Assembly: GCA_016839945.1 (NCBI GenBank)
Contig: JAEOTE010000067.1
Location: 1-28,775 of the forward strand
Reading direction: 5' to 3'
Length of the DNA stretch: 28,775 nucleotides
Source of the DNA: Candidatus Heimdallarchaeota archaeon
GTDB lineage: Archaea; Asgardarchaeota; Heimdallarchaeia; Heimdallarchaeales; Heimdallarchaeaceae
Shown piece after piece: positions 1,743-28,775 of this stretch. Position 1 is the stretch's first letter; every line of letters starts with the position of its first letter. The notes under the pieces were generated by a model. The model made no database searches and was not told the DNA's origin. It saw only the letters and a program-made list of their open reading frames with translations. The translations under genes were made by a program, and so were the position numbers.

Positions 1743-3056
1743 ATGAACGAGTTATATATAGAGTGTAAATATATAATTTCTGGCTCTAAATGTGAAAAAC
1801 TAGTTAAGAATGGAGCTATTTTGATAGAAGATAACAAAATTCTAGAAGTTGATAAAGCTTCAAACGTTAAGAAACTTCTTGCTGGACATGATAAATTAAA
1901 CCGTACTAACCACACCGCTATTCCTTCACTAATTAATGCACATACTCATCTTCCTGAAACATTACTTAGAGGAATATGTGATAGTGAAAAGCTTGTAAAT
2001 TGGTTATATGATTATATTTGGCCTTTTGAAATGAAAATGACAAAAGAAGATGCATATTACGGCGCTTTATTAGGATGTCTAGAACTAATTGAATCAGGAA
2101 TAGCCGGAATAATTGATCAATATTTTTATACTGAATCCATTGAGCAAGCTATTAAAGAATCAGGAATTAGAGCGCTTTTGTGCCCATCCATATTTGATAA
2201 TACGCCTGAATCAGGTAGTCTTGATAATACTTGGAAACACGTATCAAATTTAGTAAACAAAAAAGGTTCTTCCGAAGATAATAATGTTAAATATGGTATT
2301 GGTCCTCATGCTCCATACACCGTACCCAAGGAGTATTTATACAAGATATTAGAGCTATCCTCGAAATTTTCGCTACCAATACATATACATCTAAGCGAAA
2401 CTAAACAAGAAGTTGAAGAGAACAAAGAAAAATTTGGAATGTCTCCTATTGAGTATATTCATGATTTAGGTTTAACTAAAGAAAGAATCCTTGGGGCGCA
2501 TTGTGTTCACACAAATAAAAAAGATTGTGAAATAATGAAAAAAACAGATTTCACAGTTTTGCATAATCCTCAATCTAATCTTAAAATGACTAGTGGAATT
2601 GCACCTGTCTACAAGTATATTGAACATGGAATCAAAGTGGCAGTAGGTACAGATGGGAATGCTTCGAATAATGATTTAGGCATGATTGAGGAGCTTTCAA
2701 CAACAGCCATGCTGCAGAAATATCTTTCTAATGATGCAAAAGTTATGCAAAATGCGTCCGTTCTATATTTAGGGACAATAAGTGGATTGAAGACAATTGG
2801 TATAGAATCTACTGGAATTTCAAAAGGATCTGTAGCAGATATAACTCTTTTAGGTCTAGATAGAAGCCACTCATGGCCTCAAAATGATCCGCTTTCAAAT
2901 GTAATATATTCATCTTCAAGCTCTGATGTTACTGATTTAATCGTAAATGGTAAAATAGTGTATTTAAATAAAGAACATCAAACTTTAGATAAAGAAAAGA
3001 TAATTAAAAAATGTTCATCAATTTCATCTAAGATACTTACAGAAATGAAAAAATAA
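1743..3056 (+). CDS. Metal-dependent amidohydrolase, MTA/SAH deaminase-like
   Basis: NAHTH, GPHAPYT, HIHLSET, GAHCVH, HNPQSNLK and GTDGNASNN motifs of the MtaD/TRZ-ATZ family. Substrate inferred. Confidence 0.85.
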   Translation: MNELYIECKYIISGSKCEKLVKNGAILIEDNKILEVDKASNVKKLLAGHDKLNRTNHTAIPSLINAHTHLPETLLRGICDSEKLVNWLYDYIWPFEMKMTKEDAYYGALLGCLELIESGIAGIIDQYFYTESIEQAIKESGIRALLCPSIFDNTPESGSLDNTWKHVSNLVNKKGSSEDNNVKYGIGPHAPYTVPKEYLYKILELSSKFSLPIHIHLSETKQEVEENKEKFGMSPIEYIHDLGLTKERILGAHCVHTNKKDCEIMKKTDFTVLHNPQSNLKMTSGIAPVYKYIEHGIKVAVGTDGNASNNDLGMIEELSTTAMLQKYLSNDAKVMQNASVLYLGTISGLKTIGIESTGISKGSVADITLLGLDRSHSWPQNDPLSNVIYSSSSSDVTDLIVNGKIVYLNKEHQTLDKEKIIKKCSSISSKILTEMKK

Positions 3057-3081
3057 AAAAGTCAGTTATTAAATTATAACA

Positions 3082-3142
3082 TGGCAATGAAGAATCTAGC
3101 CCTTCACTGAAATAGATGTTGAGGATCTTGAGTTCTGAGCCA
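3082..3142 (+). ncRNA. Box C/D methylation-guide sRNA; D guide complementary to the tRNA-Leu(CAA) anticodon arm
   Basis: Terminal stem TGGC/GCCA; C box ATGAAGA 3087-3093; 13-nt guide; D' CTGA 3107-3110; C' ATGTTGA 3116-3122; 12-nt guide GGATCTTGAGTT; D CTGA 3135-3138; T-tract follows. Confidence 0.85.
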
Positions 3143-3150
3143 CTTTTATC

Positions 3151-5136
3151 TTATCTCTTTCTTTTGTATCCTAGAAACTCAAATTGCCAAAACGCATATC
3201 CTTCCGATGCTGAACGAAGTTCAGACGCTATCTGTAAAGAAGATTCAACACTAATTTGCCCCATAATTGTTGTTTTTGATGTGTAGTGTTCAGTTTTTTC
3301 AATATCACAATTAAATTTCTGAGTAACAGTTAAAACAGCACCTAAGTGGTGAAGAGGTGTATATATTGAAAAAGAGTATATTGGTTCATAAACATTCAAA
3401 TTAGCATTAATAATTGCTTCATGAATTGTATTTTTAACTAGTGGGACAACTATCTCATATCGTAAAGATTCACTAACAATTTCTTTAATCTCGTTAATAA
3501 TTACAGTTAATTTTCTAATTGAGTATCCTTTTAGTGGTCCTTTCATTATCGCATTTCTAAAACTAGTTCTTAATAAATCAAATAATTCTTCGTTTCCCTT
3601 TTCTAAATCAACTAACAAACGATTTTCTTTATAGTCAGAATATATGCATCTAATTTCATTTTCTTCAGTTGGTTTGCATGTTATAGTTATCTGAATCAGA
3701 TTCAAATCATCCGTTTTTGTAAGTGTAAATTCTTCTTCAATTTGTTCTGCTAGGTTAACTTCTGGATTTGAAACTTCAACTTTTATACCTGCTTTCTCAA
3801 TTTCTCCAGTAATAATTTCAAGTTGTAGTTCACCTATACCATAAATCTTCATTTCTCCAGTATTTTCATCTGTTGTATGGTTAAAATTAGGCTTAATTAA
3901 GGAAAGAACGTCTAACAACTTCTGTAATTTAGGAATATCTGAAACTCTAGAAGGCTCAATGCGTTGTGAAATTACAGATTCTTGAAGATATGGAATATTT
4001 TCAAACATAACATTTGGAAAGTCTTCCGTTTTTTCTACAAAAGTATCTCCAATTTGAACGTTCTTTATACCAATAAGTACACCAATATTCCCAGCACTCA
4101 CAGATTCCATTGTTACAAGCGATTGTCCCTTGTAAATACAAACCTGTTGAATTCTTGTAGTTTCCCCCGTTCTTCTATTATAGACAACTGATCCTGACTT
4201 TATTGTACCTGAAAAAACTCTTGAAATTGAGATAATTCCTCTATTATCTTCATACATTAATTTACCAACACACAAAATAGTAGGTCCTTTATCCTCGCAT
4301 TTTATGATAGCTTCTTCTGAACTCTTATCAGCATATTGTGTTATCTGCTCAAAACGTTGTTTTTGTCCTTCATATGGATCTGGTACATTTTCTATAATCG
4401 CGTTTATTATTGCTTCAATAATAGGGAAGTCAGACTTTAGTTGTTCAATGTTGCCTTCTTCATGAAGCTCAATGATTCTATTAAATTGAGGTAAAGTCTT
4501 CGAATATTTTGATATTGCCCATCCATAGAGAGCTGCCCCCATAATAACGGTTCCTTCATCAAATTTAACCTTCCATTCTTTCCTGAAACTTACAGGCGCG
4601 TATTGGTCTATTAATTCGTTTACCATTTGTATAATGTTGTTTATTCTGGTTTCGATTTCTTCTTTAGGTAACTTTAATTCATTGATTAATCTATCAACTT
4701 TATTTATGAAGAGAATTGGTTTTAGACACTCACTCATTGACTGCCTGATTACAGATTCTGTTTGAGCCATAACTTGTTCTACTGCATCAACTACAATAAT
4801 AGCTCCATCGACCAGACGTAAAGCTTGAGAAACCATGCCTGAGAAATCAACATGTCCTGGTGTATCAACTAGATTAATTAAATAAGGCGAATCATTATAA
4901 TTGAAGATGAAAGAGATATTTGCTGTCTTGATAGTGATTCCTCTTCTTTGCTCTTCTTCAAGATAATCTAAAGCACGTGCACTTCCTGCCATAGTCTTTG
5001 ATATTAATCCTCCCGATTGGAGTAAATGGTCAGATAAGGTAGTTTTTCCATGGTCTACGTGACTTACTATGCTTACATTACGTATGTTTTCTTTTTTCTT
5101 CATAGATTTTGAGATTTGATCAATGTATTCACTCAT
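3151..5136 (-). CDS. Elongation factor 2 paralog (aEF-2p-like translational GTPase) lacking the diphthamide histidine
   Basis: G motifs SHVDHGKTT, RGITI, DTPGH, NKVD; EF-2 domains III-V recognisable (GIGELQLEI, YEPIY, LRSASEG). 661 aa with a shortened domain IV and no HRG motif. Confidence 0.88.
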   Translation of the reverse strand: MSEYIDQISKSMKKKENIRNVSIVSHVDHGKTTLSDHLLQSGGLISKTMAGSARALDYLEEEQRRGITIKTANISFIFNYNDSPYLINLVDTPGHVDFSGMVSQALRLVDGAIIVVDAVEQVMAQTESVIRQSMSECLKPILFINKVDRLINELKLPKEEIETRINNIIQMVNELIDQYAPVSFRKEWKVKFDEGTVIMGAALYGWAISKYSKTLPQFNRIIELHEEGNIEQLKSDFPIIEAIINAIIENVPDPYEGQKQRFEQITQYADKSSEEAIIKCEDKGPTILCVGKLMYEDNRGIISISRVFSGTIKSGSVVYNRRTGETTRIQQVCIYKGQSLVTMESVSAGNIGVLIGIKNVQIGDTFVEKTEDFPNVMFENIPYLQESVISQRIEPSRVSDIPKLQKLLDVLSLIKPNFNHTTDENTGEMKIYGIGELQLEIITGEIEKAGIKVEVSNPEVNLAEQIEEEFTLTKTDDLNLIQITITCKPTEENEIRCIYSDYKENRLLVDLEKGNEELFDLLRTSFRNAIMKGPLKGYSIRKLTVIINEIKEIVSESLRYEIVVPLVKNTIHEAIINANLNVYEPIYSFSIYTPLHHLGAVLTVTQKFNCDIEKTEHYTSKTTIMGQISVESSLQIASELRSASEGYAFWQFEFLGYKRKR

Positions 5137-11193: not shown

Positions 11194-12213
11194 TTAATTT
11201 TCTCTTAATAATCTCATCAATGCTCTAGGAATTTGTTTATAACTAGAAACTTCAGCAAATTTTCCCCTACCCAATCTTGCAAGATCCTTACAAACTCTTC
11301 TACCCCAATCTTGCTTACTTGGTAAAGATATAACATGAAGACGTGGAAAGTATTTAAGGTATGGTCGAGGATCTCCACCTCTATTAAAAGCTCCATCAGT
11401 AATGATAACACCAAACTTGTGTCTTTTCTTAATTTTTTCTAGTTCAAGTCCACCGTATTTCAAACCTTCAGCAATATTAGTATAACCAGCGCTTTCACTT
11501 TCAAGAATTCGATTAACTAGTTCATTAGTTTTGACTTTCTCTTTAATATGCTTAATAGTATAAGCTTTAGTATTAAAAACAACCACACTAAAGTTATCAC
11601 GTTCTAGATTATATGCCATTACTGCAACAGTTAATGCTGCTGTTGTGAATCTTTCACCGTATAAAGAACCAGATGTGTCAAACATAAGAACTGCAGTTTT
11701 TGTTCTCTCTTTTCTTTCCAAACTAACTATGTCTTCTGTGTGGAGTACCCTACTACGGTTTTGTAAATACCTCTCTAATGTCTCATCAATATCAAATTCA
11801 TCTAGACCTATTTCATACTCGGTTTGTTCAAAAACTTCTCCTCTTATCCCTTGACTTGTGATACCAAAAGCTGTAGTTAAGATAACTTGTCTGGCTAATC
11901 GACGGAAAACAGGTTTCATCCTATCATCTAAAGCTGTTCTAAGCATGAAGAACAGCTCGGGAGCGCTACTGTCACCTTTAGAAGCTCTTCTAGCAATTAG
12001 TGTATATCCTTTTTTAGAATTAAGAGCTTCTGCAACAGCAAATTTATTCGAAATAGCTAACCCTTGAATAGCAGGCATATTGTCTACATCGATAGCTAGT
12101 TCTGTTTGTTTTTTGATTTCGTAGTAGCTCATTCCCTCAGATAAACTAGAGTAGATTGAAGGATTTCTTTTTCCTGAAACTATTTCAGCTTCAAGCAACC
12201 TATTCTTGTCCAT
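11194..12213 (-). CDS. von Willebrand factor A (MIDAS) domain protein, CoxE-like MoxR partner
   Basis: FDIDETLE, MIDAS DTSGS, GYTNI, ITDG. May also be translated as the C-terminal part of a frameshift fusion with MoxR. Confidence 0.9.
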   Translation of the reverse strand: MDKNRLLEAEIVSGKRNPSIYSSLSEGMSYYEIKKQTELAIDVDNMPAIQGLAISNKFAVAEALNSKKGYTLIARRASKGDSSAPELFFMLRTALDDRMKPVFRRLARQVILTTAFGITSQGIRGEVFEQTEYEIGLDEFDIDETLERYLQNRSRVLHTEDIVSLERKERTKTAVLMFDTSGSLYGERFTTAALTVAVMAYNLERDNFSVVVFNTKAYTIKHIKEKVKTNELVNRILESESAGYTNIAEGLKYGGLELEKIKKRHKFGVIITDGAFNRGGDPRPYLKYFPRLHVISLPSKQDWGRRVCKDLARLGRGKFAEVSSYKQIPRALMRLLREN

Positions 12214-12275
12214 CTTACCTCGAAAGACATATGGTTTCTGGAAATCTTCTTTATACAGGTCTCCGCTCCCCTCTT

Positions 12276-13175
12276 CTAGAAAAAATCCATATCTTTGAAT
12301 GTTGTTGTTACTATATTCTTTATAACGTCCTCAATTAAGCTTTCTACACCATCTTCTAATTCGATTTTGGTAGCTAAAGCCATGATTGAGCTATCAATCC
12401 ATGATTCGATTTCGTTAGCTTCTAGAAAACGAATAATAGAAGCTAAATCTAATGCACCTCTAATAGAAGAACCTCTTCTTAAATCAGGCCAATCTCTTGT
12501 TTGTCTTATAATCTTAACAGCCATTTTAACTATTTTTTCCTCTTTTATGCCTGTTCTAACACGAACAATGTTTTGTTCTTCTTCTTCAGGTTGATATTCT
12601 AATCTTATCCAGACGAATCTGTCTCTCAATGCTTCGCTTAATGGTGTTGTTGCAACAAGCTCGGCAGGATTCATTGCACTTATAATGAAAAATCCTTCTT
12701 TTGCTTGAATTGCACCTAATTTGGGAATGATAATGGTTCCTTCATCCATTGCACCTAGAAGAACATTCTGTGTTCCTTCAGGCATACGATTTAATTCGTT
12801 TAAAAATAATATAGATCCTTTTTGCATTGCTTTAGTTAAGGGCCCTGTTACAAAAGAATTCCAATCATACCCCTTCTCAATAACCATAGGTGGATCAAAA
12901 TGACCAACTAGTTTTGATGAGCTATATCTTTCATCACCATCAACTCTTTCGAGGTCTTGTGTGAAATATGAAGCCATTGCATGTGCAAGTGTAGTTTTTC
13001 CCACTCCCACATCCCCTTCCAAAAGAATATGTCTATTTGCTAGTTTTGCTGCTAAGCATTTCCTTAATTCAACAGTTCTTCCAACGATATTAAACTGCTC
13101 TTGAATTTCTTCAATCATTTCACTTATTGTTTTATCTTGCATTACTACGCCTTCCATTGGTACCTCTTTCCTCAT
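12276..13175 (-). CDS. MoxR-family AAA+ ATPase
   Basis: HILLEGDVGVGKTT Walker A, GPLTKAM, variant Walker B LFLNELNR, AMNP, ALRDRF, GSSIRG. Alternative start ATG 13157. Confidence 0.92.
   Translation of the reverse strand: MRKEVPMEGVVMQDKTISEMIEEIQEQFNIVGRTVELRKCLAAKLANRHILLEGDVGVGKTTLAHAMASYFTQDLERVDGDERYSSSKLVGHFDPPMVIEKGYDWNSFVTGPLTKAMQKGSILFLNELNRMPEGTQNVLLGAMDEGTIIIPKLGAIQAKEGFFIISAMNPAELVATTPLSEALRDRFVWIRLEYQPEEEEQNIVRVRTGIKEEKIVKMAVKIIRQTRDWPDLRRGSSIRGALDLASIIRFLEANEIESWIDSSIMALATKIELEDGVESLIEDVIKNIVTTTFKDMDFF
12279..12285 (-). other. Candidate -1 ribosomal frameshift slippery heptamer T TTT TTC
   Basis: Correctly phased X XXY YYZ directly before the MoxR TAG. The -1 frame has no stop between it and the vWA ORF. 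Confidence 0.6.
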
Positions 13176-20002: not shown

Positions 20003-22102
20003 TTGTCTTCCATAGCAGGACCCTTCATTCTTGGTATTTCAGAAAAACCACAAGCTGCAAGCAGAATAGCTATGGCTTTGGATGAGAAAAATAAACCAAC
20101 CATGAAGAAGGTTGAGAACATATCTGTTTTCGTATGCAATAGAGATGGAAAAAAGATTGTTGTAGCACCTGCATTGGGGCATTTATTCTCTCTCTCTTCA
20201 ATAAGCAAAACTTGGAATTATCCTGTTTTAGATTATGAATGGGTACCAAGTTATATCGAAAATAAGAATTTGAAAACAAAAAATTTTATCGCTGCTTTTA
20301 AGACTTTGGCTAAAAATGCAGAGGGAGTCATATTAATGACTGATTTTGATAGAGAGGGAGAAGTAATAGGCTATCTTATACTCAAATATGCTATTGGAAG
20401 AACACAAGCAGAAAGAATGAAATTTTCTACTCTCACAAGAACTGATATCTTAACAGCATATAACAATAGGGAAAAAACCTTAGATTTGGGTTTTTTGAAT
20501 TCAGGATTACTTCGTCACTATGTAGATTGGTTGTATGGTATAAATTATTCAAGAGCTTTAAGTTCTGCATTAAAGAGAGTTTCTGGAAGGTTTAGAACAA
20601 TATCAATTGGTAGAGTACAGGGACCTACATTAGGTGCTGTGGTTGCATTAGAAAATGATTTGGAGTTATTTGTTCCTATACCTTATTGGACAATTGAAAG
20701 TAAGGTTCATATAGGGAATAAATTGTTCCCAGCATTTTATGAAAAATCGAAAATCGCTACTCATCATGAAGCATTACAAATAACTAGAGATTGTAATAGT
20801 TTAGTGGGTAAAGTTTACGATATAACAAAGGAACAAGCTCCAATTTATCCTTTTCCACCTTTCAACTTAGGAGATCTTCAAAGAGAAAGCTATAAACATT
20901 TTAAATTTTCACCAAGTAAGACACTTGCAATAGCTGAAAAATTATATCTGAATGCATTAATATCATATCCGAGAACTGATAGTCAAAAGTTACCTATGAC
21001 CTTGGGGCATAAAACTACATTACAAAAACTTTCAAACCAATCAAAGTATGCAATCTTTGCAAAAGAAATACTAGATAATAAGAAGTTTAAACCTAGGGAA
21101 GGCAAAAAAACAGATGCAGCACATCCTGCAATTCATCCTACTGGTAACAAACCAGAAACAAATCTTCAAGCTAATGAACAAAAATTATATGATTTAATCG
21201 TGAAACGATACCTCTCTGTTTTTGGTAGAAATGCTTCAATTGAAAGAAGTAAAATAAAGATAGATGTCAATAATCACAAATTTGAGGTTAGAGGAAGTCA
21301 AATTCTAGATGAAGGTTGGATTAGATATTATAAACCGTATTATTCACTTAAAGAACAACTATTACCAGAAATCAAAATAGATAGTGAGATAAAATTCAAA
21401 TTTATTGATGCAAAAGAACGTTATTCGTCTCCACCATATCGTTATAATGAATCAACGCTTCTTAAAAAGATGGAAGACGAAAAAATCGGAACTAAAGCTA
21501 CAAGAGCAGGAATAATCCAAACCTTGTTTGATAGAGGTTATATTGAGGGGAAAGTAATAGCATCTACACCTTTGGGAAATGCAGTAGTTAGAGTTTTGAA
21601 AGATGAGTATCCAATATTAGTAAAATCTGAGATGACACGAAATTTAGAAAATATGATGGAGAAAGTCCAAGAGGAAAAAAGTGAGGTAGAGAATATTGTC
21701 CTAGAAATAAAAAAAGAATTGAAGGAAATGCTAGTTTTATTTCACAAAAAAGAAGCTGAAATTGGTCTCTCACTTTATGAGGATCTTCAAAGAACAGAAA
21801 AATCAGATTTACTAATTATTGGTAAATGTTTAGAATGTAAAAAAGGAGAACTAAGAGTTATCAAATCAAGAAAAACAGGAAAGAGATTTATTGCTTGTTC
21901 TTCATATTTTGATAAATCAATAAATTGTACCGCTACATATCCTTTGCCCGGTACAGGTATAATCAAACAAACCTCAAAGACATGTCCTCACGATGGTTTA
22001 CCTCTAATTGAGTGGAGGAAAGGAAAGCTTAGAAAGATAATATGTATATCTCCAGAATGCCCGTCTAAAAAGGAAGAAGCGAAAAATGAAATCAAGAAAT
22101 AA
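20003..22102 (+). CDS. topA: Type IA DNA topoisomerase
   Basis: TOPRIM SEKP and DFDREGE, SIGRVQGPTL, catalytic ISYPRTDS, AHPAIHPT, GTKATR, C-terminal Zn ribbons. Confidence 0.96.
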   Translation: MSSIAGPFILGISEKPQAASRIAMALDEKNKPTMKKVENISVFVCNRDGKKIVVAPALGHLFSLSSISKTWNYPVLDYEWVPSYIENKNLKTKNFIAAFKTLAKNAEGVILMTDFDREGEVIGYLILKYAIGRTQAERMKFSTLTRTDILTAYNNREKTLDLGFLNSGLLRHYVDWLYGINYSRALSSALKRVSGRFRTISIGRVQGPTLGAVVALENDLELFVPIPYWTIESKVHIGNKLFPAFYEKSKIATHHEALQITRDCNSLVGKVYDITKEQAPIYPFPPFNLGDLQRESYKHFKFSPSKTLAIAEKLYLNALISYPRTDSQKLPMTLGHKTTLQKLSNQSKYAIFAKEILDNKKFKPREGKKTDAAHPAIHPTGNKPETNLQANEQKLYDLIVKRYLSVFGRNASIERSKIKIDVNNHKFEVRGSQILDEGWIRYYKPYYSLKEQLLPEIKIDSEIKFKFIDAKERYSSPPYRYNESTLLKKMEDEKIGTKATRAGIIQTLFDRGYIEGKVIASTPLGNAVVRVLKDEYPILVKSEMTRNLENMMEKVQEEKSEVENIVLEIKKELKEMLVLFHKKEAEIGLSLYEDLQRTEKSDLLIIGKCLECKKGELRVIKSRKTGKRFIACSSYFDKSINCTATYPLPGTGIIKQTSKTCPHDGLPLIEWRKGKLRKIICISPECPSKKEEAKNEIKK

Positions 22103-22334
22103 CCATCTTAAATGTCCTATTTGCAAGAGAGATAAAGAACTCGCTCAAATGAAATATTGTGCAACCCATAATGAAGCAAAAGAAAAACTACAAAAAGGTT
22201 ATGAGTCGTGGTTAAAAGCGTATAATATCCTCTCATGGGATGATTATCTTCAGCAATTATTATCTCTCGAAGGAGAAGTGGGGAATCTTATTAGAGATGT
22301 AGCTGAATATGAACTTTATTTTAAACAAGATTAA
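22086..22334 (+). CDS. Small putative Zn-binding protein (CxxC...CxxH)
   Basis: CPIC...YCATH followed by a helical domain. Overlaps the end of topA by 17 nt. Confidence 0.7.
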   Translation: MKSRNNHLKCPICKRDKELAQMKYCATHNEAKEKLQKGYESWLKAYNILSWDDYLQQLLSLEGEVGNLIRDVAEYELYFKQD

Positions 22335-28006: not shown

Positions 28007-28138
28007 CTGCTGTATCTATTATATTTTTTTCAATACATTGAAGTAAGTAATATGATTTTGAAAACGACTTTGTTTCTGCCTACTTTTAGTAATCTAAGTA
28101 ATTAAAACATTAAATGAAAAACAACCGAACCAAAATGC

Positions 28139-28170
28139 TTTTAATAATTCAACTAGGGGAATTATTAAAA
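28139..28170. promoter_or_regulatory. 12-bp perfect inverted repeat over the EF-1alpha promoter region
   Basis: TTTTAATAATTC-N8-GAATTATTAAAA. The left arm contains the TATA-like TTTTAATA. Confidence 0.45.
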
Positions 28171-28215
28171 TACAACCCAAATATTAGTATTCTAATAAAA
28201 AAAGGTGTAGAAAAA

Positions 28216-28775
28216 ATGAGCTCAAAAGATAAACCTCATTTGAATTTAGTAATCATAGGTCACGTTGACCACGGAAAATCTACAATGACAGGTCATTTAT
28301 TGTATCTCTGTGGTAGTGTGTCAGATAGAGACATACAAAAATTCGAGAAAGAAGCTGAATTAATCGGACGAGGTAGTTTCAAATTCGCTTGGGTTTTAGA
28401 CAAGCTGAAAGAAGAGCGAGAAAGAGGTGTAACTATCGATCTTGCATTCTATAAATTTGAAACTAAAAAACATTATTTCACCATTATTGATGCTCCTGGA
28501 CATCGTGACTTCGTGAAGAATATGATAACAGGAACCTCACAAGCTGATGCCGCAATATTGGTTGTCAGTGCAGGAACTGGTGAATTTGAAGCAGGAATTA
28601 GTACAACTGGACAAACAAGAGAACATGCTTTACTAGCAAAAACCTTAGGTGTTGACCAAGTAGTAGTTGCAGTCAATAAAATGGATCTTGCTAAATATAA
28701 GAAAGAACGTTTTGATGAAATTAAAGATGAAATGGAAAGAAACCTCAAGCTTTTTGGTTTTGACATGAAAAAGGT
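28216..28775 (+). CDS. tuf: Elongation factor 1-alpha (5' part, runs off the window)
   Basis: Not in the ORF track. Manual translation gives [23 protein letters not shown]...ERERGVTID...[17 protein letters not shown]...NKMD; AGGTG SD. Confidence 0.97.

Follow-up and report, generated by a model that had tools for sequence, protein, structure and literature searches.

A very probable programmed −1 ribosomal frameshift joining a MoxR-type AAA+ ATPase to its vWA adaptor in Asgard archaea

In a Heimdallarchaeaceae archaeon (Asgard), the adjacent minus-strand genes for a MoxR-type AAA+ ATPase and a vWA adaptor very probably form one recoded locus, in which a programmed −1 ribosomal frameshift would yield two N-terminally identical proteins in a set ratio, a 299-aa ATPase and a 660-aa ATPase-vWA fusion. 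We put the probability of this reading at about 0.8. The stretch of DNA analyzed, here called the window, is 28,775 nucleotides long, and the features of the locus are collected in Table 1. At the level of sequence, the case is carried by a conserved and phased slip site, the stop that follows it, an open coding linker, fused orthologues, and a NorD-like fold.

The mechanism that we propose starts from one mRNA, on which most ribosomes would end translation at the UAG at 12276, giving the 299-aa ATPase. At G_GAU_UUU_UUC, a smaller share of ribosomes would move one base backward as tRNA-Phe re-pairs from UUU to UUU, aided by the adjacent stop and 3' RNA structure, and would then continue through a flexible linker of 24 residues into the vWA domain to complete the 660-aa fusion. 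The two products would most likely co-assemble into a MoxR hexamer with about one tethered vWA/MIDAS adaptor, comparable to NorQD or CbbQ6O1, and the mixed ring would remodel or metallate a client. The exact codon pair, the stimulator, and the efficiency of the shift, like the mixed ring, its ratio, and its client, are parts of this proposal.

Table 1. Features of the candidate frameshift locus, in window coordinates
Feature	Position	Strand	Details
MoxR-type AAA+ ATPase ORF	12276..13175	minus	299 aa, zero-frame product; AAA_5 E 2e-22, AAA_3
G_GAU_UUU, preferred −1 shift site (phylum-conserved position)	12282..12288	minus	N_NNU_UUY in 89/90 −1 loci; G_GAU_UUU in 44/90
U_UUU_UUC, overlapping canonical heptamer	12279..12285	minus	U_UUU_UUN in 48/90 −1 loci and 27/27 family loci
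UAG stop of short product	12276..12278	minus	one codon 3' of conserved UUU
Coding linker, −1 frame, predicted flexible tether	12214..12275	minus	residue conservation, no vWA-frame stops, low pLDDT
Weak hairpin region	12240..12273	minus	GA at +8 nt, then GGGGA...UUUCC; second GA missing
GUCUUU, possible 3' arm pairing with 12264-12259	12223..12228	minus	GUC Val codon fixed at nucleotide level; helix 86% paired, no covariation
vWA ORF	11194..12213	minus	339 aa: helical N-domain, finger-like hairpin, vWA domain, intact MIDAS (DxSxS, residue 179)

Recomputation of the locus returned both ORFs with the lengths and coordinates given in a preliminary description, together with its T TTT TTC heptamer (12285-12279), which lies in phase directly before the TAG (12278-12276). 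The ATPase ORF ends ATG GAT TTT TTC TAG, with six T in the assembled run, and 62 nt separate its stop from the vWA ATG at 12213. The vWA frame is −1 relative to the ATPase and is open from 12330; a one-base backward slip gives the conceptual fusion of 660 aa with the junction peptide DMDFFLEEGSGDLYK, all of which reproduces the earlier claim. The gap had also been described as G+C rich and coding in appearance, and this description stands: G+C is 43.5%, compared with a median of 23.4% for 383 comparable gaps in the same genome (0.5% are equally high), and the linker is open with conserved residues. Of 2168 long ORFs in the genome, 3 end in T_TTT_TTN-stop, and the ATPase ORF alone ends in G_GAT_TTT_NNN-stop. 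Readthrough of the UAG was rejected: the zero frame contains a further stop and does not match the vWA frame.

Orthologous loci were compared across about 22 Asgard families, giving a set of 106 that are kin, such that counts are not independent trials. Joining the ATPase to the vWA domain takes a −1 shift in 90 of these loci and a +1 shift in 15, and the remaining one is fused in frame. Within a 20-codon linker window, stops occur in the vWA frame of 0/105 split loci and in the other two frames of 55 and 86; the vWA frame is always open upstream past the ATPase stop, and linker length differs among loci by whole codons. The pattern that the preliminary description had sought in relatives is thus present, in that the U run, the stop, and the open linker are kept and natural in-frame AAA+-vWA fusions exist; relatives that lack the heptamer and carry linker stops, named there as evidence to the contrary, were not what the 105 linkers revealed. 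Because the site is a homopolymer, a sequencing or assembly error in an ordinary fused gene, or a recent pseudogene, deserves consideration. However, the same break is found in 105 independent assemblies, including the single-contig genomes G027 and G030, and the split persists at 40-50% protein identity, with both halves 78-99% conserved within the family. This conservation of the break excludes an assembly error, and we give the explanation as a whole next to no weight. Database annotations of such loci as two genes, often with invented starts, would appear to be mis-annotations. One ATPase ORF of the set (L050, G026:C213) is interrupted by an in-frame TGA, which falls on a conserved Ser roughly 63 codons short of the usual end, while its slip site is intact; this TGA is a sequencing error or a broken allele.

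Where the ribosome would slip is a separate matter. The preliminary description placed the shift at U_UUU_UUC, and that heptamer is indeed present in phase, but N_NNU_UUU with a stop behind it, which overlaps the heptamer and reads G_GAU_UUU in the window, is the likelier conserved −1 site. We prefer it because N_NNU_UUY is near-universal among −1 loci (89/90), whereas U_UUU_UUN occurs in only 48 and is absent from 42. The N_NNU_UUY variants in the 90 −1 loci comprise G_GAU_UUU (44 loci), A_AAU_UUY (16), A_GAU_UUU (15), C_CGU_UUU (6), G_GGU_UUU (3), and five others. A phased U_UUY lies within a few codons of the ATPase stop in 89/90; in 70/90 the base preceding the P-site codon equals that codon's first base, and in 87/90 the stop is 0 or 1 codon 3' of UUU, with the distance from UUU to the downstream hairpin constant in either case. 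In the 21 loci of the window's genus, the GAT TTT TT core shows no nucleotide variation. As the two heptamers overlap in the window, the junction peptide is identical from either. The sole −1 locus without U_UUY, L109 (G251), has A_AAC_CCU before the stop, still a heptamer of the X_XXY_YYZ form.

The same T run could act during transcription, with RNA polymerase adding one U in the T6 run and ordinary translation then producing the fusion. A T6 run common to many −1 loci and all +1 loci fits this explanation, as one homopolymer could serve either direction. Against it, 42 of the 90 −1 loci lack the second element, U_UUU_UUN, and many have only T4, while the T runs cited for such slippage exceed 8 (PMC3711429). 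Sites with only four U disfavor polymerase slippage, and the run is strictly codon-phased, with a phase that differs between −1 and +1 loci. The stop position, the CGN codon of the +1 sites, and the hairpin at fixed distance are, moreover, features of the ribosomal type. Polymerase slippage is consequently improbable, and we infer that the slip is ribosomal.

Evidence that the gap is coding comes from the linker itself. Upstream of the vWA ATG, the residues Q, P, V, F, R, G, and K are invariant in the 21 genus loci, most with synonymous variation, and because invariant residues carry varying codons, the linker is, on this alignment evidence, under coding selection. Predicted confidence over linker residues 1-23 is low (pLDDT <50), and the predicted fold begins at the vWA Met. 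This boundary is also compatible with two ordinary genes, in which the vWA protein would be made from ATG 12213 through reinitiation, a weak SD, or an internal promoter, the slip site being a relic in the family; such an arrangement could coexist with frameshifting. The ATG is retained in 27/27 family loci, every one of the order's 44 loci has an ATG at some point in its linker, GAGGT precedes the window's ATG, a TATAAA-like word lies at 12255-12250, and a clear stimulator is lacking. Yet GAGGT stands 3 nt from the ATG, a spacing seen in 3 of 75 cases in a genome with an SD peak at 6-9 nt, and its T is kept in only 3/21 genus loci, while the TATAAA-like word is missing from 8/21. A relic, furthermore, would not show a fixed GAT TTT TT or conserved linker residues with synonymous changes. 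As the only route to the vWA domain, separate initiation is countered by the 40/105 orthologues with no ATG within 32 codons of the site. An SD paired with any start-like codon, non-AUG starts allowed, is found in 13/105 loci, and the window has no such pair. Two ordinary genes are therefore an unlikely account of the locus as a whole. A free vWA protein in the window's family is structurally plausible all the same, since the ATG is kept in every family locus and the fold begins there, and the start at ATG 12213 may operate in addition to the programmed frameshift.

The argument from missing start codons is weakened by the next gene, which appears to start at a non-AUG codon. This PUA-PAPS-reductase-4Fe4S gene, 3' of vWA (window 11193-11004, minus strand), encodes a CxxC...CxxC ribbon at its N-terminus, ahead of the first ATG (11004). 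In the window and in most genus relatives it has no in-frame ATG there, and a GGTG-type SD is followed after 5-6 nt by ATC, ATA, or ATT; L047, L048, and L051 have ATG at that start position. The gene is a candidate for a conserved non-AUG start.

The nature of a stimulator in the window is less clear. A weak pseudoknot had been suggested, and both of its helices can be drawn, but they show no covariation and the region folds no better than shuffled sequence (z of +0.9, −0.06, and −0.1), which leaves a pseudoknot in the window unproven. Over 27 family sequences, 82.6% of cells in the proposed pseudoknot are paired, compared with 32-61% in slid controls; covariation in its helices was not detected in these sequences, and the score was matched by 185 of 500 shuffles. 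Its 14-nt loop 2 is atypical. A hint in favor of the second helix is that the GUC Val codon at 12228-12226 is the sole invariant codon among 149 fourfold sites in the 21 genus loci, GTC accounting for 7% of Val codons. A long-range helix (12276-12272 with 12227-12223) is 87% paired with no compensatory changes, and RNAalifold found no consensus structure for the window's family.

Most other families have a kink-turn-like hairpin at a constant 8 nt. In 28 loci of 11 other families, a GA sits exactly 8 nt after UUU; a canonical stem, variable in sequence, comes next, then a bulge of 3 nt (GAU in 26/28) and a second GA. A detector of a similar kind gives hits at 6% of background positions. We call these elements kink-turn-like only, as in many cases their non-canonical stem is weak, and the GA pairs double as Glu and Asp codons. 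Family f14 has the element in reverse orientation (11/11 loci), and further families have plain hairpins at about 8 nt. A tandem G.A/A.G kink-turn was not found in the window, where the first GA and the GGGGA/UUUCC stem are kept and the second GA is absent, although it is still present in L026, a neighbor 98% identical to the window. By its position, the hairpin of the window appears to be what is left of the putative kink-turn-like stimulator seen elsewhere. Pseudoknot, family-consensus, kink-turn, and shuffle tests yielded no convincing stimulator in the window. L7Ae-family genes are present in the genome, as expected in any archaeon, and their presence is no evidence for kink-turn regulation. 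An incomplete search of the literature returned nothing on kink-turn frameshift stimulators.

The wiring of the locus has changed repeatedly. All 15 +1 loci (families f6, f22, f23, and f24) carry UUU_UUU_CGN; CGN makes up about a quarter of the Arg codons in the window's genome, with CGG at 1%. Five in-frame f24 fusions (Njordarchaeales by cluster names) have the same motif exactly at the domain boundary and a +1-frame stop 3-6 codons beyond it, and a slip there would give the short form, an inverted wiring. All 120 longer homologues among the matches listed are natural AAA+-vWA fusions; four natural fusions align through the linker end with 42-45% vWA identity. The fused orthologues P0002 and P0067 have no slip site, and Bathyarchaeia and other fusions also lack the motif; the loss in P0002 and P0067 indicates that a free ATPase from the locus is not always needed. 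A quick tree with paralogues included and a midpoint root requires at least four changes for each wiring state, places the +1 family f6 as sister of the window's −1 order, and nests four fusions among −1 loci. Production of two products seems to be what selection keeps, because repeated rewiring preserves both, and this is the strongest argument that the sequences offer.

Related arrangements were seen outside the orthologous set. A second MoxR-vWA pair in the same genome (G000:C89, about 20430-22230; L055, L085) has an A_AAA_AAA −1 site, a wiring shared by L086-L088, L091, L089, L092, and L094. Two in-frame fused paralogues, L093 and L097, have an A run of at least 9 at the domain boundary, about 25 codons past the ATPase end; a slip there would truncate the product, and this may be another case of the inverted wiring, based on an A-rich site. 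In Bathyarchaeia, an in-frame fusion (P0091; L160, gene 2001-3815) has two TTT TTT pairs at the boundary, one of them within an A_AAT_TTT heptamer, a single example for which a metagenome scan with P0091 gave nothing useful.

By sequence and predicted fold, the two halves are a MoxR-VWA pair. The ATPase matches NorQ, CbbQ, and midasin AAA domains and has a MoxR-type domain with Walker A (residue 54), Walker B, and sensor motifs. Walker B reads LFLNE (residues 123-127, about 12809-12795, minus strand), with N for the usual first D, and NE is found in 84/105 orthologues. The MIDAS D, S, G, S, and later D are invariant in 65 sequences, and the predicted structure of the vWA part has the NorD VWA+finger as its best fold match (9qhd_G, E 6e-9). 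CbbQ/CbbO is a 6:1 complex in which each hexamer has a single vWA protein (PMC4660213), and in NorQ/NorD the finger of NorD inserts into the pore of the ring (PMC13036017); one adaptor can thus suffice for a ring, and frameshifting by a minority of ribosomes would provide it. Co-assembly of short and fused forms into a MoxR hexamer with about one tethered adaptor is accordingly a reasonable conjecture, at slightly under even odds. Recoding might set the ratio of ATPase to ATPase-vWA in the ring, as the preliminary description held, with the proviso that the ratio is not fixed family-wide, because site-less fusions and inverted f24 genes exist.

As for a client, the PUA-PAPS-reductase gene lies behind all 51 family loci examined but is a weak candidate, being absent behind the L052-L053 and L138-L156 loci of other families. 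A nor or cbb client was not found near the locus in the window. The window also contains two EF-G/EF-2-type GTPase genes (3151-5136, minus strand, and 28114-28775, plus strand), and genes for Cdc6, for the two PolD subunits, for a type IA topoisomerase, and for STT3 lie nearby, a housekeeping context.

Taken broadly, these loci could represent a phylum-wide Asgard recoding switch, repeatedly rewired (−1 to long, +1 to long, and in-frame long with slip to short), which combines sites of the eukaryotic-virus type with an L7Ae-bindable kink-turn in most −1 families and, tuned by protein, produces midasin-like rings with a single MIDAS adaptor. In the window the kink-turn would have decayed, with another or weaker stimulator in its place. 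We offer this wider view tentatively, as an idea with rather less than an even chance of being correct. The case for cellular programmed frameshifting in archaea has so far come from fucA1 and predicted chelatase cases (PMC8211752, PMC5009743), and a site kept across most Asgard families can be put to a direct test in the lineage closest to eukaryotes, where it can be asked whether Asgard ribosomes obey G_GAU_UUU-stop and UUU_CGN signals. Recoding would also be a genetic means of assembling a ring that is asymmetric, with several ATPases but one adaptor, and would extend the chlD trick to MoxR chaperones.

A close precedent is frameshifted chlD, in which a −1 shift makes a short AAA+ and a long AAA+-vWA subunit from one locus, with in-frame fusions also known and archaeal examples in Methanocaldococcus and Methanococcus (Antonov et al. 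2013, PMC3711429; Kuznetsov et al. 2022, PMC9227772; reviewed in PMC5009743). The parallel drawn in the preliminary description is sound for the mechanism, as the locus likewise encodes a short AAA+ and a long AAA+-vWA product, but this is not chlD: chelatase family scores are 24 bits for both TIGR02442 (cut-off 779) and TIGR02031 (cut-off 500), the natural fusions also fall far below, and CobN/ChlH (PF02514) was not found in this 88%-complete genome. Unlike chlD, with its A_AAA_AAR, the window's site is U-rich with an adjacent stop, and the MoxR-vWA family adds +1 and inverted wirings and a kink-turn-like hairpin. The words "MoxR" and "von Willebrand" are absent from the text of PMC3711429, and, in keeping with the claim that the arrangement is undescribed for MoxR in Asgard archaea, an incomplete literature search found no paper on MoxR-vWA or Asgard frameshifting. 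In Saccharolobus (Sulfolobus) solfataricus, fucA1 is a cellular archaeal −1 frameshift that in 2021 was called the only reported case in Archaea (PMC8211752); it is strain-restricted, A-rich, and repairs one enzyme, whereas the proposed MoxR-vWA shift spans the phylum, and two functional products are predicted from it.

The candidate signals themselves have their counterparts in viruses of eukaryotes. Pea enation mosaic umbravirus shifts −1 at G_GAU_UUU followed by one codon and UAG, and the stop is needed for shifting (PMC5009743); the window has the identical heptamer and stop spacing. Influenza PA-X uses a +1 site, UUU_CGU, a tRNA-Phe motif (PMC3498833), which the UUU_UUU_CGN of the +1 orthologues resembles. 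At the protein level, NorQ/NorD and CbbQ/CbbO (and CoxD/CoxE by Pfam) likewise pair a clade-7 AAA+ ring with a MIDAS-bearing vWA adaptor, but as separate proteins from separate genes, whereas the window's adaptor is predicted to be covalently tethered through recoding. Midasin is the best PDB sequence match of the ATPase, with a score that sums several repeats, and midasin/Rea1 also combines an AAA+ ring with one covalently linked MIDAS domain. There, six AAA units and the MIDAS lie in one chain of 4700-4900 aa.
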